Shown: positions 13,768-43,743 of the stretch, one piece after another
How the letters are laid out: every line of letters starts with the position of its first letter
Position numbering within the stretch: position 1 is the first letter of the stretch
Assembly: GCA_049599475.1 (NCBI GenBank)
Contig: JBMYOQ010000004.1
Location: 64,001-128,000 of the forward strand
Length of the DNA: 64,000 bases
Source: Opitutales bacterium
GTDB lineage: Bacteria; Verrucomicrobiota; Verrucomicrobiia; Opitutales; JABSRG01
Direction: 5' to 3'
Program-made: the position numbers and the translations under genes
The notes under the pieces: generated by a model
Database searches by the model: none
What the model saw: only the letters and a program-made list of their open reading frames with translations
What the model was told of the DNA's origin: nothing

Positions 13768-13873
13768 CCCTCGAAAGAAATCGGGTGGTCGCCATTAGCA
13801 AGATACAATGCGATTAGAAATGGTATGTTTTTCCGCTTTGACCTTTAAATGGCGGCAGGTCATCTCAGTATTT

Positions 13874-16800: not shown

Positions 16801-19315
16801 TCTCATACAAATCGCAGAAGCTGATTTTTCGAATCTATGGGCGGAAGCCACGGAGATTAAAATAGGTTTTTTAGAGGGGACTGAATTTCAAACTATGGCG
16901 ATGCCGTTTGGCTCGATGAGCGCTGGGCAAGGCCTTGAAATAAATCTCTCACGAAGCCAGTTGGGCCCTCTGGATTCATTTGAGATATCCGCCTTCAATC
17001 TAAAAGAAAAGGAATCTCACAACCTTTGGTATATACTATCGCCAGAGTTGGATACTTCTCTTCAAGATAATCTGAGTTGGACACAAAATGCTCAAGGAAG
17101 GGAGCAGCAAGCTTCGTCTTGGACTACCTCATTTGATGCGATTCCCTATTATTTTCCGAAAAGCCCTCTTTCAGGCCAGGAACAAGAGGCCCGAGAAAGT
17201 AGTTCGTTGTTGGCTGCAGATCTCGAAGAGCATGCTCTATATCCTCTCGCAATAGGAGAGTGGCTCCATCAAATCGAATTACTGAATGACCGTGACGGCG
17301 TTGTTTCAATGACCGCGCGAGCCCCCGATCAATCTGCTGAGTATCGGGTGCAGTTCTTGGAATTTGATCCGGGAGGAGATGCAGATGTCGGTGTAAGTAA
17401 TATTTCCGTACGAGCTCCTGTGGATGTAGACATCCGGGCACCAGAATGGGCGAGGAAAGGAGACCGCATTATTGCGGTAACGAAGATCTCGAACAACGAC
17501 GAGAGTCCACAAACTGAAGTCTTTGAAACACGCTTATCCTTCGGGTCAGAATCGGAATTTAGCAGCTTAAACAGAATGGATCTTGAGCCTGAAATCGATT
17601 ATTCTCTTCGATCCTATTTTGATATCCCGAATATCTCTGACTCTGACGATAATTTAGCTTCAATCAGTTTTAGGAGGGAGGGTAAACCTTGGAAGGTGGC
17701 CGTGGACCTAGAGCTGCATCCGAATGAATCGCTGGCAAAATACTTCTCCTCTGTAGATCAACTCCAGGCGGGTCTATGGAAAAACGAATCTGTTGATTTC
17801 GCTCGTTTGGACGCCGTTTATTTCGCATTCGGGTATGAACATTTGATTGAAATGTTAGGAGAAGTTTCGGAGCAAAGTGCCCCGGAATTCGTATTAGCGC
17901 ATCTACGCAATTTGCTCTTTGAGCTGCTCTCTGGAGATGCAGACCTCGCGAAGATACGCCAAGAAATCGATCATTTGGAGAGATTTCTTACGTCTGACGG
18001 AGGTATTTCGTTCTACGAGAACTCTCAGAAGGATATCTTTTGGTCTGCCTTTATTTATTTATTATTGAGCGAAGTGCGGACCGAATTCGGAGTCGATTCG
18101 CCTCTGGATGATGCGGTGAGTGGCTATCTGTCGAGTATCATTTCGGACGGCACTCAGAAGGCTTCGGCGCGCATATGGTCTCTCTATGCGCTATCGACTC
18201 GCTTCGTGGGGACAGACGCCACCGCAAGTAAGTCTGAACTATCGGCTTATCAACGCATGTGGAGGATTCGAGCCACATTGCCTCCGTATAGTTTACGGAT
18301 GCTGAGTGTCGTGGCGGATCGCTTTGGTCTCGTCGAAGATCGCAAGCTATGGGAGGATTTGGCGACGAGGCGTGAGGAGACTCCGACGGAAATTAAAGTA
18401 AATGATCGCCTACGCATCGGCTTGGCTAGTGCAACGACGCCTTTCTTCTCCAACTCGGAACAGACTATGATTAATGAGCTATTCAAGTCAGGCTCTGAGA
18501 CTGCCGGGGGTGCGTTTCAATTTTCGATCTCTGGTGATGCGTTAGATCGGACGTTTCTTTTGAAAATGCTTTTGGCTTTAAACTCTGTGCAGGGTGTGAG
18601 CTCGAAGGAGACCGTTGGTTTTCCCGATTTGGATGCATTTAGAAATGCACTACAAGTGAGAGTGTCGGATCGTATCTTGAGTCCGGAAGAGTTCGAATTG
18701 GCGCGATCGGAGTCGGGTTATTTTATGCTGATACTGGATCCTTCAGTAGGCTTAGCAAATCCACAAGGCTCACTCACGTTGTCGATCCAGGGATCTGTGC
18801 AGCCGTTGTGGGTGCTCAAAGGAATAGATGATCTTCGGAAAGCAGGAGATGGTGTTTTCCTGAGCCGAGACCTGAAGCGTATTAGCCGCGTGCAGACCCT
18901 ATTGCGCGGAGTTGTCGAAAAGTCCGAATCGGTTAAATCTGAGCAGGTTGTGCTCAATCCAGAGGATCGATTGCTCGTTGGTGTGAAAATCAACACAGAC
19001 CGTGCTCTGAGATCGCTTGTATTAAGAGAGCCCTTACCTGCAGGGATGCGCTTGGTTTCATCGGATCTTAAGCTAGTAGGCCGCTCGGGCCGTGAGCTGC
19101 CAGTGGAAGATGTAGAATGGTATGTCGATCCTTATGGAATCGAAGCCCGTATACGTAACTTGCCGGAAGGGGAATGGTCGATGGCTTATCGGCTCGGCCC
19201 TGATTTTGAGGGGGAATACCACTCCGGAAATTTTTCACTCTTTGGCAATGAACCAGAATTTCAGAAAGCGTACCTTCCGAAATACTCAGTCAAAATTTCT
19301 GAGGAACTGGAGTAG
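13874..19315 (+). CDS. Alpha-2-macroglobulin-like large exported protein (no thioester Cys)
   Basis: Signal peptide from ATG 13874; MG-like motifs (GAYLVE, SDKTFLDLGE, APEWARKGD), TED-like SDGGISFY, C-terminal REPLPAGM; ORF-track start 13808. Confidence 0.72.
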   Translation: MILARITRIVLFPLSAVLLSLCLLSAQEASLLRVGDLIEEPLVPESTELSSIENFGSQNVLEFEVKAAIERLAVLKNSSPALGGELVVARTDLQALIEEYLGSGFAQIDGEMLISAYQALGDSWVLVEGMGDFPSAWSYYVNGLNWLAGQPRSAWAANAYVEMFTRTFEDPFYLQRVSDRDQVTVMSQPWIGHLRDLLQLTDESQTGLYLLALFDQYNPETTLTERLRIRETYERALEGAEEQAWYHSARFHYALWLQEIGNASLDESGAFIANPDLPTAVSVFRDLIDSGQVSDTRRDEILNRLQDLESPDVTLEIGQAYLPGADVDVDLIWKNATGGSVRIFEISPATGFNFAGLGVDASIAEAASVDPTLEILEIPVSRDNLDNPYVYETKTIQLPLALDLGAYLVELEIEDGETAREILWVTDIAQINSISETHQTLTIVNTEEARLFEDSLDVVRWVWDESTLSWREETTVFPVNESRLRLEHEPTDSVFWVLAYRDRRISFSKATLGAVESMPEDSLYWAISDKTFLDLGETARIAYHIQVSDERVENLSLGYRLLDSDGKLLTIGQIEQEFPASGFVDYTVGENTSHGALNWEVFEIDSDKSVFSMPIAQVAPQALETLSLELQVNNQNIRENNQWSFPKGGTVDISGEFSDLFTDSAKQVLYRLNAYRSPLDDAQSGNSGMHSTAPSTLMRGLHTQSSRWESAYNQENTTDEFGRFRDLIPVVEAFDSEHKRYQYWVDFLYYEEGSGAWVSAGWMAFVVSEHAYIGRLGVSSTIVEPGGSVLMRFSAESPFRSPVAVDGQIRVERKEWEETWIDSRGRQLSGTEYRETRSRRGFFRSWAEGDRAYRLLDSGFRQEPIFARRLNLRAGNSFQRQFRLDEPGIYEFSWMDIDAAGRPIVETQTVYCIDLDSGSTATWNLQDIIWVSPDAFRPNGSGDSGVILFPDEVKRAWVEIQSRNGREMKVYEVGRGLIQIAEADFSNLWAEATEIKIGFLEGTEFQTMAMPFGSMSAGQGLEINLSRSQLGPLDSFEISAFNLKEKESHNLWYILSPELDTSLQDNLSWTQNAQGREQQASSWTTSFDAIPYYFPKSPLSGQEQEARESSSLLAADLEEHALYPLAIGEWLHQIELLNDRDGVVSMTARAPDQSAEYRVQFLEFDPGGDADVGVSNISVRAPVDVDIRAPEWARKGDRIIAVTKISNNDESPQTEVFETRLSFGSESEFSSLNRMDLEPEIDYSLRSYFDIPNISDSDDNLASISFRREGKPWKVAVDLELHPNESLAKYFSSVDQLQAGLWKNESVDFARLDAVYFAFGYEHLIEMLGEVSEQSAPEFVLAHLRNLLFELLSGDADLAKIRQEIDHLERFLTSDGGISFYENSQKDIFWSAFIYLLLSEVRTEFGVDSPLDDAVSGYLSSIISDGTQKASARIWSLYALSTRFVGTDATASKSELSAYQRMWRIRATLPPYSLRMLSVVADRFGLVEDRKLWEDLATRREETPTEIKVNDRLRIGLASATTPFFSNSEQTMINELFKSGSETAGGAFQFSISGDALDRTFLLKMLLALNSVQGVSSKETVGFPDLDAFRNALQVRVSDRILSPEEFELARSESGYFMLILDPSVGLANPQGSLTLSIQGSVQPLWVLKGIDDLRKAGDGVFLSRDLKRISRVQTLLRGVVEKSESVKSEQVVLNPEDRLLVGVKINTDRALRSLVLREPLPAGMRLVSSDLKLVGRSGRELPVEDVEWYVDPYGIEARIRNLPEGEWSMAYRLGPDFEGEYHSGNFSLFGNEPEFQKAYLPKYSVKISEELE

Positions 19316-30238: not shown

Positions 30239-30424
30239 ATGAAAATGTTTGCCGCTCTAATATCGTCGTTTCTTGTATTTACGCCAACGTGTCTCACTGC
30301 AAGTGAGCCCTCGAATGGGACTTTGATCATGTTGGGATCTTTGAGTGGTTGGATGGTTCTCTCCACAGCTTTTGTCCTCAAAAAGAAGTCTGCTCTTCAG
30401 GTTGGCAAGGGAGAGAAACAGTAA
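30239..30424 (+). CDS. Small protein: signal peptide plus PEP-CTERM-like tail
   Basis: MKMFAALISSFLVFTPTCLTA then SEPSNGTLIMLG-hydrophobic-KKK; 22 bp before the next gene. Confidence 0.55.
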   Translation: MKMFAALISSFLVFTPTCLTASEPSNGTLIMLGSLSGWMVLSTAFVLKKKSALQVGKGEKQ

Positions 30425-30446
30425 TTCATATCTGAAAGGATTCTAG

Positions 30447-33400
30447 ATGTACATTTTAGGTAGTGGACTCTCCTGGTCTAGAGGTTATGTCCATGGGACT
30501 CTTTTGATTCTTTGTTCTCTGGTTAATGCATCTGAAGCGGGTGTCGGATTACCGTATGAGAACGATTTCGAAAATTCCGATGGGGTTGGGATCGGACTAG
30601 TCTCCGAACTATTGAATTGGTCGAAGACCGAAGGGCTTTCTGTTTCCGCAACTGACGACGCTGCATCCGGAGTTCAGGCGCTTGAACTATCATATGGTGG
30701 TGACTTTGGGCTCGAAATTCTGCCCTATCCCGAGCTAGATACTGTAGGCTGGGTCGATTTTTACCTTAAGCCCTCTGTAATAAATCAAGATGAGTTCCCC
30801 TCTTGGATTCCTCCCTATAAATCGGCGGTTACAGGCTTTGGTGAAATGGAAGGCCAGGGTGAGGTTTATGCTATCGACGGCGATGGGTTTGGAAGCGGGA
30901 AATGGCTCCCGTCTGGGGCATCCTTTGACATAGAGAGTAAGCAGGCAAAAGAATGGATGCGGTTGACCTACAGGCTCGATTTCGCGAGGAAGTCTTGGGA
31001 TCTGTTTGTTGATGGTCAGTTTATTTACGCAGGTCTTGGGTTTCTAGACGATACAGTAAGCTCATTGGGGAGTTTTACGTTAAGATCTGGGATCGAAGAT
31101 TCTACGAATTTTGATTTCTTCTATGCTGGATTCGAAAACCCAATATATCTGGATAGTTCAAACGATGGATTACCAGACGCCTGGCTTGAGGCCCAGGGAT
31201 TGAGCGTTTCTGAAAGTCAACGTTATAGCGATTTAGATTTCGATGGTTTGGATGCTGCAGCGGAATATATAAATCAAACATTTGTCCATAATCCGGACTC
31301 TGATGGAGATGGTGTCTCCGATGGAATGGAGGTTTCTTACAATAACGACCCATCCGTTGCTGATAGTTATATTTTAGGTGTCTTACCGTTTAGTGAAGAT
31401 TTTGAGTCTTATTTTGAGGGGAGTTTTTTCGATACGGAGAACTGGATTGTTACAGGGGGCGCCAATGTCTCTTCCAAATCACATTCTGGATCTCTCGCTC
31501 TCGATGTTGAACCGATTTCCTCCGTCAAGAGTTGGATTGCGGGATCTTCTTATGGAATCGTTTGGGTTGATGTCTGGATCGAAAATCAAAGTGAATTACA
31601 GCCATCCGTATCGTTAGATCAAAGTGTCGTTTACAGCTTTGACTTGGAGAATCGCCTGAGGGTTCGGGCTTCAAATAATCAATGGACCCAGGCTGATGTC
31701 TCGTCCCGGGTAGGATGGCGACGATACACCGTAAAGAATGACTACTCTTTGCAGTCGTCTGATATATACGTTGATGGCCTAAGGGTTCTGAGAGAAATCC
31801 CGTTTTCGGCTCCCTCTCCATTTTTGAATCAAGTTGAATTTCTAGGGCCGATAGCAATTGATGAATACTCTGTTCTGGGGACCAAGCCGGTAGGTTTGGA
31901 TGACGACGCTGATGGCTTGGACAATGAATCCGAAATTTTACAGGGCACAGATCCGGAACTGTTCGATTCGGATAATGATGGAATGGGTGATCTGTCTGAA
32001 ATTGTTCATGGCTTCGATCCATTAGCTGCTAACTCAGAGTTCTCATCATTTCAGGCTAGCTCCGAGAACCCGTTTTGGGTTTCTCAATTTTCTGTATTGG
32101 AGGGATTCCAAGCGGGAGACCTTGCTGGGCAAATGAATTGGTTGAGCTCCGGTGCCGCGTCGGTTTCCACTGAAGAAATGCTTGAAATAACAGACTCTAT
32201 TGAGGGTCTAGTGCAGGTGTCCCACGGGTTTGGAATCGAAGAAATTAAAAGAGTCTGGGTCGCTTTTGATGCGGAAATGATTCCAGGATCTCTTCCTGAA
32301 ACCCCAGATTCTGCTTTTGCATTCGCGATGGCGATGCGAAGTGTGGATTCTGTTTCGATTTGGAATGCTCAGGAGAATATGTGGAAGAATTACTATTCGG
32401 ATCACCTTCGGGAAGGAATGAATACCTACGCATTTCATTTAGACTTCATTGAGAAAGCCTCGAGTGTGTATGCGAATGGAGTCCTTCTTGCCGATAACAT
32501 TCCATTTTTAAACTCTCAGTTGGAGGCGTTCTCGAGACTTATGATTAGACAGGAACCCGCCGCCGACCGGGATCCTGGTGAGCCGTCTGAAATGGCATTG
32601 TTCGACAATTTTTATGTGTCGGCCGCCGAGCCAGCTGATATGGATTTTGATGGCGATGGTTTAGTGAACGAAATAGAGCGCCAGGAGGGAACGGACCTAT
32701 ATTCTGTAGACTCGGACGGTGACGGTCTGGATGATCTATGGGAATATCAGAATGGCTTGGATGCCAGTGACCCTGAGGATGTTTATTCAGATTCAGATGG
32801 AGACTTTATTCCTGCTATTTATGAAATGAAGTATGGTTTGGATCCTAATTTTAAGGATTCGCATCCTATTTCAGGTATTGTAATGATGGACCAGTGGTGG
32901 GGGGCCAAAAGCAAGATCTCAAGTCTTACTGCAAAGAGCACCTTTCCTCTTAGTCCCGATAGGCGATTGGTGAATGATTCTCTGAACCTCGATGGAATTG
33001 CGTCTAACCTCATATTGGGCACATCTCTGCGTGTTAGAGGATATTTGAGCCCTCTTGAGACCGGGGATCATGAATTCTGGATCAAAGGCGAGAATCAAGC
33101 TCAACTATGGTTGAGTGACGATGATTCGCCTTTTGAGATGAGAAATGTGGCGCAGATCATGACGCAGAAGTATCGAGCTGAGGGATACGATGTTTACGCA
33201 GAGCAGAAGTCTCAGCCTATATACTTAGAAGCGGGGAAGCATTACTATTTTGAAGTCTTACAATCATCTACATCGAGTGAAGGGAACTTCTCTGTTTCTT
33301 GGAAATATGGTGCGGGTCCACGAGCTGAAATTCCATCATCAGCTCTTTCTTCAGCTGGACCATTTGCGGAGGAAGATAGTAACGACAATGGTTTGAAAGA

Positions 33401-35105
33401 TTCGTGGGAATCTAACTATCCCGCGATATCTCTTGATGGCTATTGGTCTGATTCAGATGCCGATGGCCTTTTAGACATACTGGAATATCAGATAGGAACC
33501 TCTCCTGTTTTATTTGATTCGGACGGTGATGGTTTCAGCGATTATGTAGAATATACTTATTTGATGAGTGATCCATCCACGGGAGATGTTATTTTGGATG
33601 CTGACAATCATGTAGTAATCATTCCTTCGAACTATATATCCTCGTCTGCCGATTGGCTACCCTCCGGAGATGAAGTCTACTCGACTAATTCCACCGGATC
33701 GCTCGGGTATGAGCTGAACTTGCTCTCAGATGGTGTATATTATCTAGAGATTGAAATTGCTGAGCAATCCAACGTCAAAACAACATCTTCGGAATTTGAA
33801 GTGAGAGCCAGTCTGAACGGAGTCTCCTATGGTATCGACAAATCTAGAGTCCCAGCTGGAGATGTTGGTAAGCTCGAATTCTATCTTCCTTACTTATCAT
33901 TAGGGGCCTATACTCTTGATCTTGACTGGATTAACGGGTTCTCTGGATCTCAGATCCGCATAAAGGCTATTCATTTGTATCGACTTACGGGAGAAGACGA
34001 TGACGCATCAGGTGTCGCTGATTGGGTTGAGAGTCGTGCGCTAACCTTCTCTTCTGCTCCGATCGACGCGACTGTTTATACCTCACCGTTTCCAGTCGAA
34101 GGGGAGAGTTTCTCTCCTGAGCTAGTCGCAGTTTCCAGTTTTGTGGAGTCTGCCCCAGGCATTATCACCGCGGCGGAAACAAAGTTAGCCTTGTCGGGTG
34201 AGTATTTCGCTGAGGTATTGCTAAGCCCCGAGGAGCCCACGGTTGTAAATGTCATTGATGGAATAGCGAGTGTCTCCAGCCAGTTGCAGCTAACGTGGGC
34301 TGTATTTAATGTATTTGAGAATGCATCAATCGATGTTCGACTTAATGACTCGCTCCTCCTCGGCTTGTTTGATCCGGAGAAATCCGAACAATCTAATTAC
34401 GAGCTTACACTATTCGCTCCTGATGGTTCCAGCGAGATGTATTCTATTTTTGGGAGCAACAATCTTCAGGTTTTATTTGATCAACCGGGTGATTGGGTAA
34501 TTACCGGAACAATTGACCAAGGAGAGGGGGTCGACCCACTCGTCTTTACGTCCAATATACGGGTTATGGAGGCAGACCTCAGCCCTACTCCTATCATTGT
34601 CGATAATGTTCAGAGAGACTGGCAGCCTAATGTATCAGCGCCAGATATCGAGTTGTCTTCAGATGCTGGAGTGATGCTTTATGAGCCGGATATCGGTTCT
34701 ATGCCGCGCTCATTCAGGCTATCTAGTGGTGTGAATCGTGGCCGTATTTTGGCGAGACTTCCGAATGAGGGCCCGATCATATCGTCCACCGGGACGACAG
34801 TGATTCGAGACTACACCCGTACGCAGACGCATGATACAATCGTAGAGACATTTGAAGATGGTACCGTTATGGTCAGCGCCTACATCATCCTTAATGAAGT
34901 TCCCGAAGATCTCTCTTTGGAGATTACAATCTTTAAATCGGGGGTTACTTTCGATGATGGCACTATCACTCGGACCGTAACGGCTGAAGATTTTGATGAA
35001 TCAGGAAGATACCGGTTCTACATGTTGCGTTCACCGAGTGTTAAAGGCGGAAATTGCCATCGGTATTTCTATTTTCAGGACGACACCCAAATTTCAACTT
35101 GGTAG
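30447..35105 (+). CDS. Large secreted protein: 3 LamG/ConA-like repeats, bacterial TSP3-like DxDxDG repeats, PA14 domain, beta-rich C-terminus
   Basis: Signal peptide; repeats at about 30549, 31383 and 32070 (W-V-D..D-F..D-l-y-V-D-G); many DSDGDG motifs; PA14 RVRGYL..GDHEFWI..IYLEAGKHYYFE. Confidence 0.85.
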   Translation: MYILGSGLSWSRGYVHGTLLILCSLVNASEAGVGLPYENDFENSDGVGIGLVSELLNWSKTEGLSVSATDDAASGVQALELSYGGDFGLEILPYPELDTVGWVDFYLKPSVINQDEFPSWIPPYKSAVTGFGEMEGQGEVYAIDGDGFGSGKWLPSGASFDIESKQAKEWMRLTYRLDFARKSWDLFVDGQFIYAGLGFLDDTVSSLGSFTLRSGIEDSTNFDFFYAGFENPIYLDSSNDGLPDAWLEAQGLSVSESQRYSDLDFDGLDAAAEYINQTFVHNPDSDGDGVSDGMEVSYNNDPSVADSYILGVLPFSEDFESYFEGSFFDTENWIVTGGANVSSKSHSGSLALDVEPISSVKSWIAGSSYGIVWVDVWIENQSELQPSVSLDQSVVYSFDLENRLRVRASNNQWTQADVSSRVGWRRYTVKNDYSLQSSDIYVDGLRVLREIPFSAPSPFLNQVEFLGPIAIDEYSVLGTKPVGLDDDADGLDNESEILQGTDPELFDSDNDGMGDLSEIVHGFDPLAANSEFSSFQASSENPFWVSQFSVLEGFQAGDLAGQMNWLSSGAASVSTEEMLEITDSIEGLVQVSHGFGIEEIKRVWVAFDAEMIPGSLPETPDSAFAFAMAMRSVDSVSIWNAQENMWKNYYSDHLREGMNTYAFHLDFIEKASSVYANGVLLADNIPFLNSQLEAFSRLMIRQEPAADRDPGEPSEMALFDNFYVSAAEPADMDFDGDGLVNEIERQEGTDLYSVDSDGDGLDDLWEYQNGLDASDPEDVYSDSDGDFIPAIYEMKYGLDPNFKDSHPISGIVMMDQWWGAKSKISSLTAKSTFPLSPDRRLVNDSLNLDGIASNLILGTSLRVRGYLSPLETGDHEFWIKGENQAQLWLSDDDSPFEMRNVAQIMTQKYRAEGYDVYAEQKSQPIYLEAGKHYYFEVLQSSTSSEGNFSVSWKYGAGPRAEIPSSALSSAGPFAEEDSNDNGLKDSWESNYPAISLDGYWSDSDADGLLDILEYQIGTSPVLFDSDGDGFSDYVEYTYLMSDPSTGDVILDADNHVVIIPSNYISSSADWLPSGDEVYSTNSTGSLGYELNLLSDGVYYLEIEIAEQSNVKTTSSEFEVRASLNGVSYGIDKSRVPAGDVGKLEFYLPYLSLGAYTLDLDWINGFSGSQIRIKAIHLYRLTGEDDDASGVADWVESRALTFSSAPIDATVYTSPFPVEGESFSPELVAVSSFVESAPGIITAAETKLALSGEYFAEVLLSPEEPTVVNVIDGIASVSSQLQLTWAVFNVFENASIDVRLNDSLLLGLFDPEKSEQSNYELTLFAPDGSSEMYSIFGSNNLQVLFDQPGDWVITGTIDQGEGVDPLVFTSNIRVMEADLSPTPIIVDNVQRDWQPNVSAPDIELSSDAGVMLYEPDIGSMPRSFRLSSGVNRGRILARLPNEGPIISSTGTTVIRDYTRTQTHDTIVETFEDGTVMVSAYIILNEVPEDLSLEITIFKSGVTFDDGTITRTVTAEDFDESGRYRFYMLRSPSVKGGNCHRYFYFQDDTQISTW

Positions 35106-35111
35106 ATCGAA

Positions 35112-35999
35112 ATGTTTGGCCAATTAAATTTCTGCTCCTTATCCGGGAAGATTCTTTCTAAACTGCCAATTCTTTTGGGGCTGCTGTCATTCGTCCAAAT
35201 TGTTCATCTGAGAGCTGAATTTTCCGTTGAAGATATTACAAACCTGTCGAGTGAGCCCTCGTTTGAAGAGCGCCATCATGCTCTTCATCGCCTATCAGGC
35301 GATCAGCTCTCCGATGGCTATCGTTGGTTATTCTCGTTTATGAAAGACGAGAATGTTCCTGAAGGAATGCGGCGAGTAGACTACATGTCCCTCGTAAATG
35401 ATATTTTTAATGTCCTGCTGGAGAATGATTTGAAGGCTCAAGATCTATTGGAGCTTTCAATAGATACGATACCTAAAATGGATGCGGACTTAGTCTGGCG
35501 GGACTATTGCGTTCAGAAATTTGGTTACTTGCTTGGCCGGAGTGACTTGTCCCCAGCTTCTGTTCATCGTGCGCTATCCCTTTTGGATAATGCTACTTCG
35601 GGAGCGTTCCCAGGATTGCAAGGTACTGCCCTTATTGTGGCTTGTAAGGTTATAGAAAGGCACCCTGAGATCGAATCATATTTCCTTGATAAAGGAAAAA
35701 TCGGCATGCGGGCAATTAAGTCCGCTCAGTCGTTGGAGGCATCTCTTCTCGATAGAGTGACGGCCTTACAGGTTGCTGCGCGTTACCGTGCTGAGGGTAC
35801 ACTCGCTTACTCGATTAAATTGATCGAAGAGTCTCTTTCGAAGGAATTGGATACGATGCTTTTGGTGTCCGCTATAGCTGCTCTAGGAGAGCTTGGAGAT
35901 CTTTCTCACGAGTCATTGCTAAAAGAACACAGATTCTCTCCCGATGTCCGTTTGCGAAGTGCAAGCCGAAGAGCACTGAATGAAATTTCAACAAAATAG
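35112..35999 (+). CDS. Secreted HEAT/ARM-like helical repeat protein
   Basis: Signal peptide; DRVTALQVAA, VSAIAALGELG, DVRLRSASRRAL HEAT-like repeats. Confidence 0.75.
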   Translation: MFGQLNFCSLSGKILSKLPILLGLLSFVQIVHLRAEFSVEDITNLSSEPSFEERHHALHRLSGDQLSDGYRWLFSFMKDENVPEGMRRVDYMSLVNDIFNVLLENDLKAQDLLELSIDTIPKMDADLVWRDYCVQKFGYLLGRSDLSPASVHRALSLLDNATSGAFPGLQGTALIVACKVIERHPEIESYFLDKGKIGMRAIKSAQSLEASLLDRVTALQVAARYRAEGTLAYSIKLIEESLSKELDTMLLVSAIAALGELGDLSHESLLKEHRFSPDVRLRSASRRALNEISTK

Positions 36000-36015
36000 A
36001 TAAAGATTTATTACA

Positions 36016-39000
36016 ATGTTTTCTCCATTTTCAGGTTATAGGCATACTCATATTTTGCGGTATATATTGCCGATTCTCTTCGCGCTTCTATGTGTCGGAT
36101 TACCGGGAACACTTTTGGCAAATCGGGGCCCTTCTGATTCTTCTGGTACTGAAGATGATGGAAATGAAGAAGAGCTCTCTGGATGCGATTCATCGTCTGG
36201 AAGTGATAACGGAAGTGTGAGTTTTGCTGTCCCGTTTCCTATTCTTCCTCTAGAAGAAGACTTAGGCGGACGGAAATTTCATATACTTGAGAGCGAGCCA
36301 TCTCCGCTTCTGTTTACGCCCGCTTCCCTGAACCACACTTCTCGCGCATTCACATATGTGAGCGCTATTATAGATCCCTCTGACCTGCCAGAAGGGTTTT
36401 CTCACGAATTCGAAATTACAAATATTCAGAGTGAACCTATTAATTTTCTTGTTAGGCATGGCTCATCGATTGGAGTTATTGGAGGAGAGTTTACCGGATC
36501 GGGTGAAGTTGCGGAGTTGCTGGATTCTAGTTTTGCTCCGACGCAGGGGGTCCCAGCATATTATCGTGTCTATCTTGGTAGTGGTGGTTATATTGACTAT
36601 CCGGCTAATCGGGGAGCGACACCTGATGCAGTCGTTACCCAAAGTGGTCGAAGTTTAAACCTGTCGACCGGAAAGGATGAGATTTTTGACGTCTCATATG
36701 ACGGCGGTGCATTTAGACAGATTCGTTCACCCTATGGTTTGGCAGATATTGTAGTGGTAGACGACTTCGGATATGAGATTAGATTTTATACTCCTGGTCA
36801 GGTTCTAGAGAAAGCTGGTGGAGAATACCCAGTAAACGGAGAACCATATCGAGTCATAGCGGTACGCAATCCGACGGGTCAAATTCAGAACAATTCGATT
36901 GTTCGAATTACCGATACTCACGGTGATTACGAGTCGGTGTCTCAGTGGACATATGTATCAGGAGCCGAGGAGTGGGTCATGTCATCAGGCTATGATGCGG
37001 AGGCAGACGAATTCTTACTGCACGAATACAAGACCGCAGAAGAGGTCTCGCCCGAAGAAAAATTGGTTTTAAGTGAGCTCTTAGATTCCGATTTAAATCT
37101 AGTTCAGAGGAAACAGGCTCTCCATACCACGGATAGTAATGGAAAAGTCTATATTACAGTCGAAACAGAGAGTCACAACGAAGAGAACTATGTAACGACG
37201 TATGATTATTACTTCGAGGTTCAAGAGTCTGAGTCAGAGTCAGAGTCTGAGGCCCCAGATAGTGAAACAGACTCTGGCAGTGACAAGACGTTGACCTTTG
37301 GTAAACTGAAATCTGTAGAGTACCCAAATGGCTCATGGGAACGTTATGTCTATGACGAAGCAAATAGGCGTTCCACTGTCGCGCGCCCCTGGTTAGATAG
37401 CGCGTTTAGTTCAACGGATGATGAAGCGAGGCTTACCGAATACTCATATGTCCCGGTACATCCGTTGGATATTTTGAACCCATTTGATAGTAGGCCGAGG
37501 ACGACGATCGAATATACTTTAGGAATAGAGACGGGACGTGCATACAATGCCTTTTTCGTCGACTCCATAACTGGCGAGTACACGGAGATTATGGAAGTAG
37601 CGACAGTCGCTGGCGCACAATTTGGAGATTCAGCGAACTTACGTACAAAGCATACCTATTACCCTATCAGTGCGGATGCAGCATCAGCGGGACGTTTAAA
37701 GACTGTCGAAACTCCAGATGGTGTTGTGCGGATCTATAGCTATGGGCAGGCTACATCTTCCGACAATTTTATTGAGACTGTAGATACAGTAGGTGTTGAT
37801 GGTCCGGTAAATGGTAAGTCCATGCGTATCCAAACAACTCGTAATACACGTGGTTTGGCTATCGCGGAGGCATCTTATGTGTATGCTTTGGATACATGGA
37901 ATTTACTTTCGACAACATTCTTTGAATATACGGACGAGGTTTCGTCTTCGGGTGCGCAACTAAAGGTGTCTCGAAAAGACGGTAGGGTATTATTAGAGCA
38001 ATCATGGTCAGGTCCAAACATTGCCTCTGTGATAGATGCGTTTGGAGTAGAGACACATTTTTTCTACGACCCTTTGGATCGCCTTGAGAGGGAAGTCAAA
38101 ATCGGCGCCGAGGGGCGAGAGGATATTGTAACCACCTATAATAGAACACTTGGGGCAATCGATTGTGGCTGTGACGGAAAGCTCTCCATCAAGCGTACAG
38201 CTGGAGGGTTGACGCTGGAAGAGAAAAAGGACACAGACTCCGTCGGTAGGTTGTCTAGTACCCAAACTATTGATGGTTATCAGACTTCGTATTCATATTT
38301 TAATTACGATTTGGAAACAACTGAGACTCTGCCGACTGGTGAGACGCGAACAACGTCGAATCATTTAGATGGTCAACTGAAGGCAACCTTGGGCAGTTCG
38401 GTTATTCACGAGTTTTATACTTACGAAATCAATTCAGATGGGCACCGTATAGTCACCGTTTCAATAGGCACTCAAAATTCTCCGCGCTACAAGAAGACGA
38501 CTTACGATTTTGCGGGAAGATTGATAAGTGAGACTACGCCGACGACCACTGGTGGCACATACACTCGTACTTATACCTATGATGAGAGGGGGCTATTGGT
38601 GACTCAGTCAGAGCCTGGATTGGCGAGCACGGTATTTGAGTATGACTCTCTCGCAAACTCGGTACGCACAGGTTTGGATGTCGATGGTGATGGTGTGCTA
38701 CAGTTACTGTCAGTAGATCGTATTACCGATAATGACACGTTTTTTGAGCAAGATGCTAGTCGTGATAACGCATGGTACGAGGTGTCCACCGTTACAACCT
38801 ATCCTGACGAAAACAGCGACCGGTCAGTCATTGTTTCTCGTATGGCTGAAAAGAGTTCAGGTTTTACGCTTGCGACGGAGCACGGGGACCTGGTTTCGGA
38901 GACTATTGCTAGAGATATTCATGGAAACGAAACTGTCGTCACCACCTACGCTGAACGCTCGACGAAGACAGCCAAAGCTATCACCAATTCTCCCGGCTCT

Positions 39001-42000
39001 ACGATCGATTCAGTAAGGACAGTAGTAAACACCTTACTCATCTCAGAGAATTCGCATACCTCGACTGAGGCTGTCATTTTCTATTACGACGCTCTGGATC
39101 GCCCTACGGGTATGCTTGACCCGAGAAATGCTCAGCCATCTCGGATTATATATGTCCCGAGGACCAGCCTTGTCGCATCGGAAATAGATGCGGCTCAAAA
39201 CCTTACCACATATACCTACTATCCTCAAAATTCCCTTGGCGCCGGTCTCGTACACTCGGTAACGGATGCCCTCGGAAAAAAAAGCTTTCGCGCCTATGAT
39301 GAATTAGGGCGAGAAGAATACATCTGGGGAGAGACTGTATACCCGCAAAGATTTACTTATGATGAATATGGCCAGACAGAGACCCTCTCCACATGGCGCG
39401 AGGCTACCTACGATCCTTTGTCGGATTCTTGGCCCGGTCTGACAGGGGGCGATACGACTACCTGGGATTATAATGCAGCCACTGGTCTGTTAATGCGCAA
39501 GGAATACGCAGACGGAAAAGGGACGGACTATACCTACAACGCCTCGAATCGCTTAGAGAAACGGGTCTGGGCTCGAGGCATCATCACCACCTATGTATAT
39601 GATCAATCCACGGGGGAGCTGCTATTAACCGATTATTCGGATACAACACCTGATGTTACTAATACCTATGATCGTATGGGGCGTTCTGATACAGTTACTG
39701 ATACATCGGGTTTACGCACATATGCTTACCGCGATGCGGATTTACTATTAGAGAGCGAAACTCTTCCACACGTTTCAGGGCACGTCTTAGAGCGCCGCTA
39801 CACGACCACTGATCAGGTCGGGCGCTTGGAAGGGACGGATCTCGACCTAAGTGGTGCGCATTTGCATACCTATTCATACGCGTACACATCCCATGGGCAG
39901 TTAGATACAGTGTCGGATGCGTCGGATATATTTACCTATCAATACCATCCCCAGTATGGCCATCGCACCGGGCGCTCAGGTGGAAAGGTAAATGTGACCT
40001 ACACATACGAGGCCAATCGTATGCTTAAGACTCAAGTTGCCAATACCGACACGTCGGGTCAGGCCATCAGTACCTATTCCTATTCCTATGATGCGTTGGC
40101 TCGACGAGATAGTCGTAGCCAGTCTGGGCTCTCGCAAAGCACAGATTCTGTCGATGTTTTTGAATACAATGATCGCTCCGAGCTTGAGGGGTGGGAGCGC
40201 TTCTCGGGCCTCGACCCCGAAAATCCGGGAGCAGCAATTCCCTATTTTAGCAGTGCATACACATATGATGAGTTGGGGAATCGAAAGACTAGTGCGGGCG
40301 GGTATCCCGCGCCAATTTCATCTACGTTCTCAGCCACCTATATGGTGAATGCACTGAACCAGTATGACGAGATCTCGAATAATGGGGTCACCCAAAGTCC
40401 TGAGTACGATTTAGATGGCAATCTCCTCAATGATGGGAAGTGGTCTTACGTGTGGAGTGCTGAAAATCGCCTGATAGGCTTAGAGCCTACATCTGCTATA
40501 GCTGGCGACCAGCGATTCGAATATGCTTACGATGCGATGGGGCGCCGTTTCGCCAAAGAGACATATACGATGAACAGCCAAGGCGGTTGGAGCCTCACCG
40601 AAGACCGCCGCTTTGTCTACGATTCATGGAATCTCATCGCAGAATATGTAATCGATGCGTCTCTTGTTCCTCAGCCCGCAACCTTCCACACTTGGGGCCT
40701 CGACTTACGCAATTCCATGCAAGAAGCCGGAGGGATTGGAGGTCTACTAAAAACAAGAGTCATCGAGGATTCATCCCTCATCCCGTATCTCTCTTCACTT
40801 TACTACCCAGCGCACGATGCCAACGGAAATATCACCGAATATCTTGACGAGTCTGGAAATATTGCGCAATCCACGACCTACTCGCCCTTCGGCAGAACGC
40901 TCGATGAAGTGTCACCTAGCGGCTTTCATCCCAGCTTTGGCTTCTCATCTAAATATAGAGAGAATGAATCGGGCCTACTCTATTATGGCCTAAGATATTA
41001 CGATCCAGAGACGGGGCGATGGCTCAGCCGAGACCCCACGGGCGAACTGGGTGGCCTCAACTTGCTCTATGGCTTCGTGGGCAATGACCCATTAAATCTG
41101 ACCGATGCGTTCGGACTTCTCGACTGTGAGACACAGGCTGTCATCAGCGAAGTCCTTGGCATCCTGACGGATCTCCTGATGGAGCTGGGGCCAGATATCC
41201 TGGATGCTATCATTCCCGGAGCAGGCTTAATCATTCAGGCACTTTCCGGAGATATCGAGGGAGCCGTGATTGGCTTAGCTATTGAAGCTGTAGCTGGACT
41301 CACCCTCGCTGTCTTGACGGGCGGTGGTTCTATCCTGGCACGCGGGGGACTTCGCGTTCTATTGAACTCAAGGAGAATTTTTGGGGCATTGAGCAATGCG
41401 GCTTCTAGGGTTATGGATGTCGCCCGGCGAGTTTTGAATGGGCCAGCCACAAACAGAGTAGACAACATTGTTCCATGTTTTATTGCCGGAACTCTTGTTG
41501 CGACACCAAATGGTGACGTTGAAATTCAAGACATCGAAGTCGGCGATATTGTTTATGCTTATAACTTCGAAACTGGTGAGGTCGTCGAACAAGAGATTCT
41601 ACAAACGTATAAGAATTTCACTTACTACTGGGTCGATATCGATGTTGGCGATGAGGTAATTACTGCTACCAGAAAGCATCGCTTCTGGGTTGAAAGTGAA
41701 GAAACCTGGATTCCTGCTATCGACTTGAAAGAGGGGATGTCTGTCCTTAGCCAAAATGGGGAAGAGTTAGAGATCTTTAGCGTTAATCTTCGGCAAATTG
41801 ACGACCCTCAGGACACTTTCAATTTGGAGGTGGAAGGTGATCATAATTACTTCGTTGGCACTTCAGGGACTTTGGTTCATAATGGTTATCCAGAATCACC
41901 TCAATATCCGCCACCAACTCAAGTCGGGGAGAACTTCCAATTTAACTTTGATGATTCTCCCGGGCGTCGAAACTCTCGTTCAGCAGGAGTTCGCCGAGCT

Positions 42001-42186
42001 CAACAAGCAGGAAACATCCAACCAGGAGAGATTGGGCACCACATCAATAGCGTTCAAAGTCATCCGCATTTGGCGGCTGAGCCGGATAATATTGAAGGTA
42101 TTCAAACAGAACCTGAGCATAGAGCTAGACATGGAGGTAATTATCGGAATCCTACGTCTGGACCACTTAGAACACCTGGTTGTTGA
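36016..42186 (+). CDS. RHS/YD-repeat polymorphic toxin with signal peptide, HINT domain and GHH (HNH-fold) nuclease tip
   Basis: YD repeats; core YYGLRYYDPETGRWLSRDP..GNDPLNLTDAFGL; HINT CFIAGT..VHN at 41476-41883; tip GHHINSVQSHPHLAAEPDNI..EHRARHGG. Confidence 0.93.
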   Translation: MFSPFSGYRHTHILRYILPILFALLCVGLPGTLLANRGPSDSSGTEDDGNEEELSGCDSSSGSDNGSVSFAVPFPILPLEEDLGGRKFHILESEPSPLLFTPASLNHTSRAFTYVSAIIDPSDLPEGFSHEFEITNIQSEPINFLVRHGSSIGVIGGEFTGSGEVAELLDSSFAPTQGVPAYYRVYLGSGGYIDYPANRGATPDAVVTQSGRSLNLSTGKDEIFDVSYDGGAFRQIRSPYGLADIVVVDDFGYEIRFYTPGQVLEKAGGEYPVNGEPYRVIAVRNPTGQIQNNSIVRITDTHGDYESVSQWTYVSGAEEWVMSSGYDAEADEFLLHEYKTAEEVSPEEKLVLSELLDSDLNLVQRKQALHTTDSNGKVYITVETESHNEENYVTTYDYYFEVQESESESESEAPDSETDSGSDKTLTFGKLKSVEYPNGSWERYVYDEANRRSTVARPWLDSAFSSTDDEARLTEYSYVPVHPLDILNPFDSRPRTTIEYTLGIETGRAYNAFFVDSITGEYTEIMEVATVAGAQFGDSANLRTKHTYYPISADAASAGRLKTVETPDGVVRIYSYGQATSSDNFIETVDTVGVDGPVNGKSMRIQTTRNTRGLAIAEASYVYALDTWNLLSTTFFEYTDEVSSSGAQLKVSRKDGRVLLEQSWSGPNIASVIDAFGVETHFFYDPLDRLEREVKIGAEGREDIVTTYNRTLGAIDCGCDGKLSIKRTAGGLTLEEKKDTDSVGRLSSTQTIDGYQTSYSYFNYDLETTETLPTGETRTTSNHLDGQLKATLGSSVIHEFYTYEINSDGHRIVTVSIGTQNSPRYKKTTYDFAGRLISETTPTTTGGTYTRTYTYDERGLLVTQSEPGLASTVFEYDSLANSVRTGLDVDGDGVLQLLSVDRITDNDTFFEQDASRDNAWYEVSTVTTYPDENSDRSVIVSRMAEKSSGFTLATEHGDLVSETIARDIHGNETVVTTYAERSTKTAKAITNSPGSTIDSVRTVVNTLLISENSHTSTEAVIFYYDALDRPTGMLDPRNAQPSRIIYVPRTSLVASEIDAAQNLTTYTYYPQNSLGAGLVHSVTDALGKKSFRAYDELGREEYIWGETVYPQRFTYDEYGQTETLSTWREATYDPLSDSWPGLTGGDTTTWDYNAATGLLMRKEYADGKGTDYTYNASNRLEKRVWARGIITTYVYDQSTGELLLTDYSDTTPDVTNTYDRMGRSDTVTDTSGLRTYAYRDADLLLESETLPHVSGHVLERRYTTTDQVGRLEGTDLDLSGAHLHTYSYAYTSHGQLDTVSDASDIFTYQYHPQYGHRTGRSGGKVNVTYTYEANRMLKTQVANTDTSGQAISTYSYSYDALARRDSRSQSGLSQSTDSVDVFEYNDRSELEGWERFSGLDPENPGAAIPYFSSAYTYDELGNRKTSAGGYPAPISSTFSATYMVNALNQYDEISNNGVTQSPEYDLDGNLLNDGKWSYVWSAENRLIGLEPTSAIAGDQRFEYAYDAMGRRFAKETYTMNSQGGWSLTEDRRFVYDSWNLIAEYVIDASLVPQPATFHTWGLDLRNSMQEAGGIGGLLKTRVIEDSSLIPYLSSLYYPAHDANGNITEYLDESGNIAQSTTYSPFGRTLDEVSPSGFHPSFGFSSKYRENESGLLYYGLRYYDPETGRWLSRDPTGELGGLNLLYGFVGNDPLNLTDAFGLLDCETQAVISEVLGILTDLLMELGPDILDAIIPGAGLIIQALSGDIEGAVIGLAIEAVAGLTLAVLTGGGSILARGGLRVLLNSRRIFGALSNAASRVMDVARRVLNGPATNRVDNIVPCFIAGTLVATPNGDVEIQDIEVGDIVYAYNFETGEVVEQEILQTYKNFTYYWVDIDVGDEVITATRKHRFWVESEETWIPAIDLKEGMSVLSQNGEELEIFSVNLRQIDDPQDTFNLEVEGDHNYFVGTSGTLVHNGYPESPQYPPPTQVGENFQFNFDDSPGRRNSRSAGVRRAQQAGNIQPGEIGHHINSVQSHPHLAAEPDNIEGIQTEPEHRARHGGNYRNPTSGPLRTPGC
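37225..37251 (+). repeat. Hexamer tandem repeat GAGTCW x4.5 encoding ESESESESE inside the RHS gene
   Basis: GAGTCT GAGTCA GAGTCA GAGTCT GAG. Confidence 0.8.
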
Positions 42187-42188
42187 CG

Positions 42189-42695
42189 ATGGACTCATTT
42201 GAAGACTTTGATTTAGAAACATGGCTAGAAGCTCGATCGGATAAGAATGAGCTATCCGATGGTGAACTTCGCTTCTATCATAAAGATAACACGACTAGTG
42301 TTCTTATACCACGGAACGATAATGATGGTTTGGATCCGAAGCTATTGTCTTCACCCCTTTCATGGTTTTATAAGAAGTATTTATGCGGCAGTATTGGGAA
42401 TAGCCACATAATCATTGGTTCTTCAAAGGTAGATGGTGTCGAAATTAGTCATCGATATAAAGTCCCTGGTCGCTTGGAAATGACTGACGTTCTAAAGAGG
42501 GTTGATGTGACGAGCGAGGTAGGTGATTATTTTTTTGCAGTGGAGTCTGCTTGGATGTTTGCCTATGCTGTTAGGCCTGTTGATAATGGCTTCGAGCTGA
42601 TTCGTTTTGATCGAGACATGCAGACTTCAGAAGTTGTTTTTTCGATAAAGTCGATCTTTGATGACTGGTGGAATCTTGTTTCTGAGGACTTTTAG
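42189..42695 (+). CDS. Cognate immunity protein, SUKH (SMI1/KNR4)-like
   Basis: ATG 2 bp after the toxin stop; AT-rich; LSWFYKKYLCGSIG and C-terminal SIKSIFDDWW echo SUKH motifs; no signal peptide, fitting a cytoplasmic nuclease. Confidence 0.7.
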   Translation: MDSFEDFDLETWLEARSDKNELSDGELRFYHKDNTTSVLIPRNDNDGLDPKLLSSPLSWFYKKYLCGSIGNSHIIIGSSKVDGVEISHRYKVPGRLEMTDVLKRVDVTSEVGDYFFAVESAWMFAYAVRPVDNGFELIRFDRDMQTSEVVFSIKSIFDDWWNLVSEDF

Positions 42696-42863: not shown

Positions 42864-43180
42864 GTAAGCGTCACACGAAGCACCGTCATTTAGCTATGTA
42901 ACCAATGAATGGATATCATAAATATGGTATCTATGACATCTACGACCTATACCGATACTGAAGCAGTCTTCCTAAAAACAGATCGTCTGGGGCGTGTCCA
43001 CGTGCCGGCCGAGAAGCGCAAGTTGATTTTGAACCGTTTTGAATCGAGTGGTCTGAGTGGTCAGGCCTTTGCCGCTCAGATTGGCGTAAAATATCCGACT
43101 TTTGCCAATTGGGTTCAAAGGCGCCGAAGGGCTCAAGGCGGATATACCAACCGGGAGCTAGCGTCCGCAAAAGCTCCGCA
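42864..43180 (+). mobile_element. IS66-family remnant (left end plus partial tnpA)
   Basis: Begins GTAAGCGTC, typical of IS66 termini, about 70 bp before a TnpA-like HTH ORF; no tnpB/tnpC; right boundary approximate. Confidence 0.7.
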
Positions 43181-43223
43181 TAGAATTTCTTGTTGTATAG
43201 AAATACAGTGTATCTATTTTTAA
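42933..43223 (+). pseudogene. Truncated IS66 accessory protein TnpA
   Basis: KTDRLGRV..FESSGLSGQAFAAQIGVKYPTFANWV HTH; then runs into unrelated AT-rich sequence. Confidence 0.7.
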
Positions 43224-43278
43224 CAGGTCACTTGCATTTAAATTTGCCTAATGAGTGCGGTTTCTTGTTTATACGATT

Positions 43279-43743
43279 ATGGAATTTGCAAGGGTTGTAT
43301 TCATCGCATTTGTTTTTAGTTTGAGCCTAGTGTCTGAGGCTAAACAAATTAAAGGGGAGTCTCTTATATTTGATATCCCGGGCAACATAAACTACCAGAG
43401 TGTTGATGGGGTGGAGGGCTATATTTTTGAGTGGAAGGAAAAACAATCGGAAATCCAATTCTATATAGGCCGTAATGAATTAGGTCTTTCTATGGACAAA
43501 TTGGAAAGTATGGCAGATCTTTTAGTTAAGTTACAGGGAGCTGTGAAGGAGGAGGTTCGAATCGGAGTTTTCGAAGGGTTCGTGGTTAAGGTTAAGGAAA
43601 CTGATATTTCCGGAGTAGAACAAAATCAGTGGAATTTCACGTTGACTACTGGGGATACCATTTGGGGAGGTTCACTTTCTGGAGCAGGCAAGAAGTCTCA
43701 ACGCATCGTAAATTCCATTCTTGAGAATGCGAAAAAGCGCTAA
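43279..43743 (+). CDS. Secreted hypothetical protein, possible orphan immunity protein (PsbP/DcrB-like topology)
   Basis: Signal peptide MEFARVVFIAFVFSLSLVSEA; AT-rich; beta-rich with terminal helix RIVNSIL. Confidence 0.65.
   Translation: MEFARVVFIAFVFSLSLVSEAKQIKGESLIFDIPGNINYQSVDGVEGYIFEWKEKQSEIQFYIGRNELGLSMDKLESMADLLVKLQGAVKEEVRIGVFEGFVVKVKETDISGVEQNQWNFTLTTGDTIWGGSLSGAGKKSQRIVNSILENAKKR

Follow-up and report, generated by a model that had tools for sequence, protein, structure and literature searches.

The stretch analysed here, referred to as the window, is 64,000 nucleotides of an Opitutales bacterium (GCA_049599475.1, contig JBMYOQ010000004.1, positions 64,001 to 128,000). It contains an operon-like cluster of five open reading frames (ORFs), all on the plus strand, that encode a short putative anchor protein (the mini-anchor), a large scaffold protein, a HEAT-repeat protein, a rearrangement hotspot (RHS) protein with a predicted nuclease at its tip, and an immunity candidate (Table 1). 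An earlier sequence-only reading had proposed a dedicated delivery system for an exported RHS toxin, and the five co-oriented genes with gaps of 22, 6, 16 and 2 bp on which it relied are borne out by the ORF coordinates. The GC content is 44-48% across 30-38 kb vs 46-55% in the rest of the window.

Table 1. Features of the toxin locus, in window coordinates
Feature	Position	Strand	Basis
Mini-anchor, 61 aa	30239-30424	+	ORF
Scaffold, 1552 aa	30447-35105	+	ORF; Pfam PA14, TSP3_bac
Constant scaffold C-terminus, ~500 aa	33600-35099	+	CBM6/35/36-like jelly roll, then beta-sandwich domains, terminal Cys-His motif
Exported HEAT-repeat protein, 295 aa; predicted periplasmic adaptor/chaperone	35112-35999	+	Weak HEAT_2, Atlas model
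RHS protein, 2056 aa	36016-42186	+	ORF; Pfam RHS_repeat, PT-HINT, Rhs_assc_core
RHS export signal, disordered acidic leader and RHS/YD cage up to DAFGL	36016-41118	+	AlphaFold2 (AF2), motifs
Encapsulated pre-toxin: hydrophobic segment and HINT	41119-41883	+	Hydropathy, PT-HINT
Toxin tip, 100 aa, predicted HNH-fold nuclease close to Tox-GHH	41884-42186	+	Homologues, motifs
Immunity candidate, 168 aa	42189-42695	+	Position 2 bp after toxin gene

The toxin, its putative partner proteins and their signal-like N-termini

The RHS protein matches the Pfam families RHS_repeat, PT-HINT (E 3e-18) and Rhs_assc_core (E 1e-20), and Pfam and NCBIfam gave no match to PAAR, VgrG, WXG100 or TpsA families in it, as had been claimed from the sequence. 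Its short, acidic and disordered leader holds a lone cysteine (Cys57), and at least one cysteine is found in 48/48 RHS leaders examined. An AF2 model of aa 36-1186 has a pLDDT of 88.7; the first 29 residues fall below 50 and are followed by unbroken beta strands. Fold searches with the RHS model returned Rhs cages as best matches (E 3e-28), the closest solved ones being type VI secretion system (T6SS) cages, and PDB sequence searches with the RHS N-terminal (RHS-N) profile and with the tip gave no match. At the sequence level, the cage ends in a GRWLSRDP...DAFGL autoproteolysis motif (DAFGL at aa 1697-1701) and the HINT autoprocessing domain (aa 1821-1956) has intact C...HN ends. Between them, after the cleavage site, lies a hydrophobic segment (~aa 1706-1780, reaching a 19-residue hydropathy of 2.0), in a region with a weak prePAAR_I match below the cut-off (E 0.005).

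RHS-N is conserved in 37-41 sequences, and the tips of complete homologues are unrelated. The tip of the present protein is predicted to be an HNH-fold nuclease close to Tox-GHH. Its own match to that family is below the cut-off (Pfam E 0.035), and among its 22 longer homologues PT-HINT is found in 21 and Tox-GHH (PF15636) in 2. The conserved tip residues are GHHINSV, N and H. Compared with the Tox-GHH signature given in Table 2 of PMC3482391 (WxxE, W, G[HQ]H, NIxF, [DE]H), GHH, NI and EH are present and WxxE and W are absent.

The immunity candidate, 168 aa when counted from ATG and 171 aa from the TTG at 42180, has three homologues at 57-65% identity, no hydrophobic N-terminus and no Pfam family; a SUKH assignment found no Pfam match and no PDB sequence match with a 4-sequence profile. 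The profile weakly matches PDB '2A protein' chains 8a2f (E 2e-4) and 7zua (E 0.024) over 40-60 residues, which may be chance. Orphan tip-immunity cassettes occur downstream in relatives (L127, L159, L230); the window has none, and what comes after the immunity candidate is an IS66 remnant. With its conserved carrier, variable tips and built-in processing, the locus is, by its sequence features, a polymorphic toxin operon with a candidate immunity gene downstream.

The scaffold has a signal-like start, three copies of a beta-rich domain (aa 35-210, 313-462, 544-698), eight TSP3-type DxDxDG motifs, a PA14 domain (aa 810-962, Pfam E 3e-6) and a conserved C-terminal block. Homologues differ in their N-terminal content, which includes LamG, RCC1, PKD and Calx-beta, and family membership suggests calcium and glycan binding. 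The C-terminus of ~500 aa is all-beta and constant among homologues, with a Cys conserved at 99%; C1537 (codon 35055-35057), in a Cys-His end motif, is the sole Cys of the mature protein. A PDB sequence search with the C-terminal profile gave weak PKD-like matches only. Among the fold matches listed, the first domain is CBM-like and the last, Cys-bearing domain is not represented, and the Atlas feature matches were all <0.9.

The HEAT protein has a weak HEAT_2 match (Pfam E 0.028) and an Atlas model that is a HEAT solenoid (pTM 0.80). N96, R130, Y132, Q135 and G171 are conserved in 106 sequences; a supposedly invariant Cys was dropped, since it is present in 82/105 sequences and was imposed by the seed pattern. 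The closest named relatives are metagenome-assembled genomes (MAGs) of Opitutales/Puniceicoccaceae, and none were found in viral contigs. In the Atlas, a HEAT-like structure falls within a cluster of 669 aa, 77% of it DUF1573. Genes for DUF1573 and a thioredoxin-plus-membrane protein cluster in 50/143 loci (duplicates included) and stand beside the cassette in many non-Opitutales loci; the DUF1573-like gene of the present genome lies elsewhere, on C128. At L061:9993-12169, L079:1275-3512 and ~50 loci, a DUF1573 protein and a CxxC thioredoxin-like/multi-membrane protein adjoin HEAT, and the two are fused in L059 and L121. This pair may handle disulphides of Cys-rich payloads; a CcdA-like label comes from motifs judged by eye, and Pfam did not return such a family.

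The mini-anchor consists of a signal-like segment, the motif [SA]EPxxGT[LV]I, a single membrane helix and a basic tail, with no passenger domain; E23, G27, T28 and I30 are invariant in 11 sequences. It is present in 18/251 genomes of the order. Six of the eight copies in the present genome sit next to a protein that carries the N-terminal domain of the scaffold, as do 24/27 loci in other genomes (a 25th was seen separately), and this adjacency indicates that the mini-anchor partners the scaffold N-terminus, not the toxin. In L167 and L126, longer passenger proteins encoded upstream of the scaffolds terminate with the mini-anchor motif. The short motif, membrane helix, basic tail and C-terminal position on these passengers recall PEP-CTERM/exosortase signals, and the genome has three exosortases. 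However, the motif here is [SA]E[PT]xxGT[LV]I, with SEPS/AEP/GET variants in place of Pro-Glu-Pro, most copies lack a passenger, and a search at E<=10 returned no PEP-CTERM model for any of the 11 sequences, although most matches >0.1 are removed by HMMER filters. Judged by motif and build, the mini-anchor has a sorting-signal layout, yet is not a true PEP-CTERM. The cassette defines both this non-PEP-CTERM anchor motif and an extensive domain family without a name (1121 clusters, E<=1e-30). Apart from the mini-anchor, many contigs of the genome carry ordinary PEP-CTERM proteins, about 25 in all and 180-330 aa long.

Export signals were scored by a proxy, the best 11-residue Kyte-Doolittle mean within the first 70 aa, which considers hydrophobicity only and cannot tell whether an N-terminal segment is cleaved as a signal or stays as a membrane anchor. 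Products 1-4 score 2.4, 2.1, 2.5 and 3.1 vs 0.4 for the immunity candidate, in agreement with the earlier claim that only the first four carry signal-like N-termini. This is kept in relatives, where values of at least 2.0 were obtained for 124/141 HEAT, 37/45 scaffold and 40/43 RHS ORFs (duplicates partly removed), against a background of 44% of 2344 genome ORFs of at least 250 aa. The tips of relatives are freely variable and often Cys-rich, and 24/28 of the immunity candidates encoded behind them start with a hydrophobic stretch. Both features are expected of cargo that crosses the oxidising periplasm, and they suggest that most family members act in the envelope. The present locus, with HINT, a predicted nuclease and a cytoplasmic immunity candidate, is a minority type within the family.

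Conservation of the cassette

HEAT loci were taken from an alignment seeded by one peptide pattern, as the best 80 of 102 metagenome loci and 51 genome loci. Opitutales, Kiritimatiellia and Lentisphaeria supplied the genome loci, along with a single Planctomycetaceae MAG. After 11 loci judged duplicate by eye had been dropped, 120 were left, mostly on short contigs, with RHS in 51 and scaffold in 47. At the 25 loci with at least 3 kb on either side, RHS accompanied HEAT 20 times and scaffold 19 times; both were there at 16 loci and at least one of them at 23. Had scaffold and HEAT homologues usually lacked an RHS neighbour, the earlier reading would have been refuted; the well-flanked HEAT loci give the opposite picture. 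A set of 400 genomes was drawn evenly from the phylum, with 3-6 candidates scored per genome and kin not independent; the scaffold C-terminus was found in 49, HEAT in 46 and both in 35. Components of the cassette are present in roughly one of every eight Verrucomicrobiota genomes sampled, most of these without a T6SS match. Rows of the present genome and partial rows that were weak or repeated were excluded, which left 64 scaffold places; these had HEAT within 12 kb in 40 cases, RHS-N in 27 and either in 49. Of the remaining 15, several sit at the end of a contig, and in L163 and L169 an RHS of a different subtype lies downstream. Conservation of the cassette extends over Verrucomicrobiota, with Opitutales, Kiritimatiellia and Lentisphaeria represented.

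Gene order varies (scaffold-HEAT-RHS, HEAT-scaffold-RHS, scaffold-RHS-immunity-HEAT); the set is nonetheless kept together. The pairwise identities of scaffold, HEAT and RHS-N correlate (rho 0.83 for scaffold-HEAT, then 0.72 and 0.66), a pattern that shared ancestry alone can produce. HEAT is repeated ahead of further payloads in L100 (before each RHS), L232 and L235. The present genome has six RHS genes. Its contig C32 repeats the window arrangement as mini-scaffold-HEAT-(83 aa)-RHS, and C12 has mini-scaffold at a contig end. C59 carries a mini-protein, a 649-aa scaffold-N-domain protein, a 345-aa protein and a TcB-like RHS, and C63 and C112 have other exported genes and a TSP3 protein ahead of RHS.

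Two further arrangements were observed. In a second subtype (L003:2832-3869, L212:3207-4469, L219:15929-16849, L222:11950-12699), a mini-protein and a shorter scaffold-N protein are followed by a 250-420-aa exported protein ending in GD[IV]xM and then by large secreted proteins, with RHS in 3/4 and YadA-head repeats in L212. A third (L005:162-9970 and L006:1022-10264, which are C112 and C63 of the present genome) combines a 267-294-aa exported protein, a TSP3/Ig protein and a signal-peptide RHS; its RHS N-terminus is different and helical-looking, and neither HEAT nor mini-protein matched.

Directly 3' of HEAT, 105 loci have RHS in 29, another large ORF in 21 and scaffold in 7; directly 5', scaffold is found in 38/105. 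These positions bear on whether HEAT is itself the immunity protein (Imm-HEAT) and the scaffold incidental. HEAT repeats are listed among immunity proteins, verrucomicrobia included (PMC3482391, Table 3), and HEAT follows the toxin in some loci (L102, L234). However, HEAT lies mostly upstream of its payload and is exported although this tip is a predicted nuclease, one HEAT family is found with unrelated tips, and a separate small gene holds the immunity position. Such a role is very improbable.

Probable export route and proposed delivery module

The genome, 96.6% complete, gave no match to TssC, VgrG or PAAR (controls positive), which extends the earlier statement on T6SS absence from the window to this genome assembly. 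Among 35 cassette genomes, 3 have a TssC match and 32 do not. The toxin could be loaded on a T6SS or other contractile system encoded elsewhere, as the T6SS Rhs cages are its closest solved folds, the prePAAR_I match is present and the genome is slightly incomplete; but the lack of a TssC, VgrG or PAAR match here, the few TssC matches among cassette genomes and the signal-like N-terminus of the toxin make this barely credible. A search for the type IX secretion system with SprA was uninformative, as its control was likewise without a match. Four secretins are encoded in the genome, one of them within a cluster (C1:88352-99060) that reads by eye as a complete type II secretion system (T2SS). 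Secretins were found in 35/35 cassette genomes, a count that covers cassette genomes alone. T2SS-like clusters with a secretin stand beside the cassette at L159:1-4074 and L232:1-8087, the latter with a thioredoxin/membrane gene inside. Secretin genes near cassettes in G290, G313, G430 and G105 (twice) were not counted as support; a rough estimate gives 2-3 such cases by chance.

With moderate confidence, we propose that the RHS-caged predicted nuclease leaves the cell via Sec and probably a type II secretin, and that mini-anchor, scaffold and HEAT protein form a dedicated module for its loading and surface display. Gene order, domain content, cassette conservation, variable tips and the lack of a T6SS match were observed directly; from these we infer interaction, display and targeting by the scaffold/HEAT module. 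Sec would carry all four signal-like proteins over the inner membrane, and in the periplasm the HEAT protein, often one copy per payload, would grip either the leader or the folded payload itself. The payload would dock on the constant scaffold C-terminus, possibly via the conserved Cys and the Cys-bearing leader, and a secretin would be the outer-membrane exit for the complex. The mini-protein may then tether the scaffold by its N-terminal domain, and the variable lectin-like domains may bind glycans of a target cell or particle. Finally, DAFGL and HINT cleavage would release the hydrophobic segment and nuclease, which would enter a rival bacterium; the downstream 168-aa protein would shield kin.

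Several observations weigh against this proposal. The HEAT loci share one seed pattern and kin genomes are not independent. The cassette has no gene for an outer-membrane component or channel, and secretins are common in the phylum (3-16 per cassette genome); their proximity to cassettes may be chance. The scaffold C-terminus is fused to RHS or HEAT in 0/150 of the best C-termini. RHS is downstream in only 4/8 scaffolds reached via the mini-protein and is missing from 4/14 hand-picked scaffold loci. Conversely, close RHS relatives with a signal occur where the locus lacks the cassette (L175, L176, L238) and where the genome yielded none; the 18 genomes of family f60 have RHS-N in 10, scaffold in 2 and HEAT in 2, and the 31 of f43 have RHS-N in 20, scaffold in 2 and HEAT in none. 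The payload is also not always RHS: L215 and L227 carry 2800-3300-aa TSP3 proteins with nuclease-like tips (by eye) and a smaller gene behind, and L164, L170, L172, L178, L216 and L224 have other secreted, often Cys-rich payloads. The labels HExxH, AHH-like and EndoU-like for non-RHS tips rest on motifs spotted by eye, and Pfam returned no corresponding family. An N-x-P motif common to payload N-termini was seen by eye only. The idea of a module devoted to the RHS cage therefore stands as far as synteny is concerned and fails in its RHS specificity; that of a Sec-dependent RHS system with accessory partners is partly supported by the conserved cassette and qualified by the close relatives without one and by earlier knowledge of Sec-signal RHS-HINT toxins.

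The cassette-free relatives in f60 and f43 fit a reading in which the scaffold is a surface adhesin in its own right, served by its own anchor and a HEAT chaperone. The RHS protein would then be exported alone, through Sec and then T2SS or vesicles, and the operon shared for co-regulation during attachment. Scaffold and HEAT are the tightest pair, both by co-occurrence (35 of 46-49 genomes) and by their correlation; the mini-protein accompanies the scaffold N-terminal domain even without a toxin nearby (C26, C23, L223), and the available text of PMC11923206 reports vesicles enriched in Akkermansia Rhs proteins. However, HEAT is copied before extra payloads without a new scaffold, its downstream neighbour is more often RHS than scaffold, and in C90 and L218 RHS carries a fused scaffold N-terminal domain. 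A separate adhesin is a serious possibility, though an unlikely one.

A bolder form of the loading and display proposal is a modular launcher used phylum-wide, in which the lectin-tipped scaffold is gripped through its N-terminal domain by a split membrane anchor, and HEAT, as an adaptor in the periplasm, loads RHS cages of various types as well as non-RHS payloads by a disulphide from scaffold Cys to leader Cys. We regard it as doubtful. If it were true, targeting by lectins and killing by tips would sit on separate chains and could be exchanged independently.

The target may also not be bacterial. If the scaffold were the half that binds the receptor in a two-part toxin released against algae or protists, it would make use of its PA14, LamG and CBM-like domains; the paralogues C59 and C90 have SpvB/FG-GAP (TcB-like) cages, and large Rhs-bearing proteins of a related PVC (Planctomycetota-Verrucomicrobiota-Chlamydiota) lineage have been suggested to serve in attacks on algal cells (PMC12057145, in part). 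However, nearly all RHS genes have a tightly linked small downstream gene, the orphan tip-immunity cassettes follow a bacterial kin-conflict pattern, and the scaffold C-terminal model has no pore-forming helices. A toxin of this kind is improbable.

Known systems and neighbouring features

T6SS Rhs effectors use PAAR/VgrG and EagR. The present toxin shares their cage fold, C-terminal autoproteolysis motif and an accessory gene beside the toxin, but has a signal peptide in place of PAAR/VgrG, exported accessory proteins, a genome without a T6SS match, and a hydrophobic segment inside the cage, past the cleavage site. WapA of Bacillota is a Sec-exported YD-repeat toxin with a downstream immunity gene; it is a monoderm toxin with its own wall-binding repeats, whereas the present system must cross an outer membrane. 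With respect to Tc (ABC) toxins, Pfam found no SpvB/FG-GAP in the window proteins, only in the paralogues C59 and C90, and the scanned neighbours have no TcA family.

A class of 'T2SS/Sec-dependent' polymorphic toxins was catalogued in 2012 by Zhang et al., who reported the general secretory route as the commonest for polymorphic toxins (PMC3482391, available text). Its members share with the present locus a signal peptide, RHS repeats, HINT and a variable C-terminal toxin, and have a downstream immunity gene where the present locus has its immunity candidate. Unlike the present toxin, which is accompanied by an anchor/scaffold/HEAT cassette, they have no signature neighbours ('-' for neighbourhood genes in Table 1). 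PA14, TSP3 and thrombospondin are not mentioned in the main text consulted, and the additional files could contain such neighbourhoods. The new part is apparently the conserved accessory cassette, Sec-signal RHS-HINT toxins themselves being already in that catalogue. No description of the cassette was found in the literature searched, which covered few subscription papers.

Bacterial teneurin-like proteins, as described in part of PMC13018210, likewise have a YD/RHS shell, a Sec signal, adhesion modules, a polymorphic tip and immunity; structure 9ifo compared with the RHS model gave a TMq of 0.43. They carry adhesion and anchoring, together with FN-plug-NHL, in the toxin chain, whereas here these functions would lie on separate proteins with a HEAT partner; teneurin-type adhesion or anchor domains were not seen in the RHS chain, in which ~30 disordered residues precede the conserved RHS-N and aa 66-365 are a possible plug. 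The phyla listed there do not include Verrucomicrobiota. The same source gives the delivery machinery of these proteins as unknown, and the cassette offers three named candidate components for the delivery of signal-bearing YD-shell toxins. Another PVC lineage has large Sec proteins with RHS and TSP3 (PMC12057145, in part).

Akkermansia, also a verrucomicrobium, has several Rhs/WapA genes with a proposed competition role and vesicle-borne products, and accessory genes are not mentioned in the available text of PMC11923206 and PMC8920140. The genus g101 (L236, L237), which may be the Akkermansia group, has distant RHS-N relatives (no more than five scored in each genome) and matches neither scaffold nor HEAT; two of these relatives were examined and have no signal-like start.

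Directly 3' of the immunity gene lies the IS66 TnpA-like remnant (42909-43223, plus strand; NCBIfam E 1e-7), and transposase-like genes also follow the RHS loci on C59, C90 and C11 (by eye). The next ORF (43255-43743, plus strand) encodes 162 aa with a hydrophobic N-terminus and no family, and is possibly an orphan immunity gene. Elsewhere in the window, 13808-19315 (plus strand) encodes a 1835-aa divergent bacterial alpha-2-macroglobulin-like protein (A2M E 2e-4, bMG10 E 2e-5).

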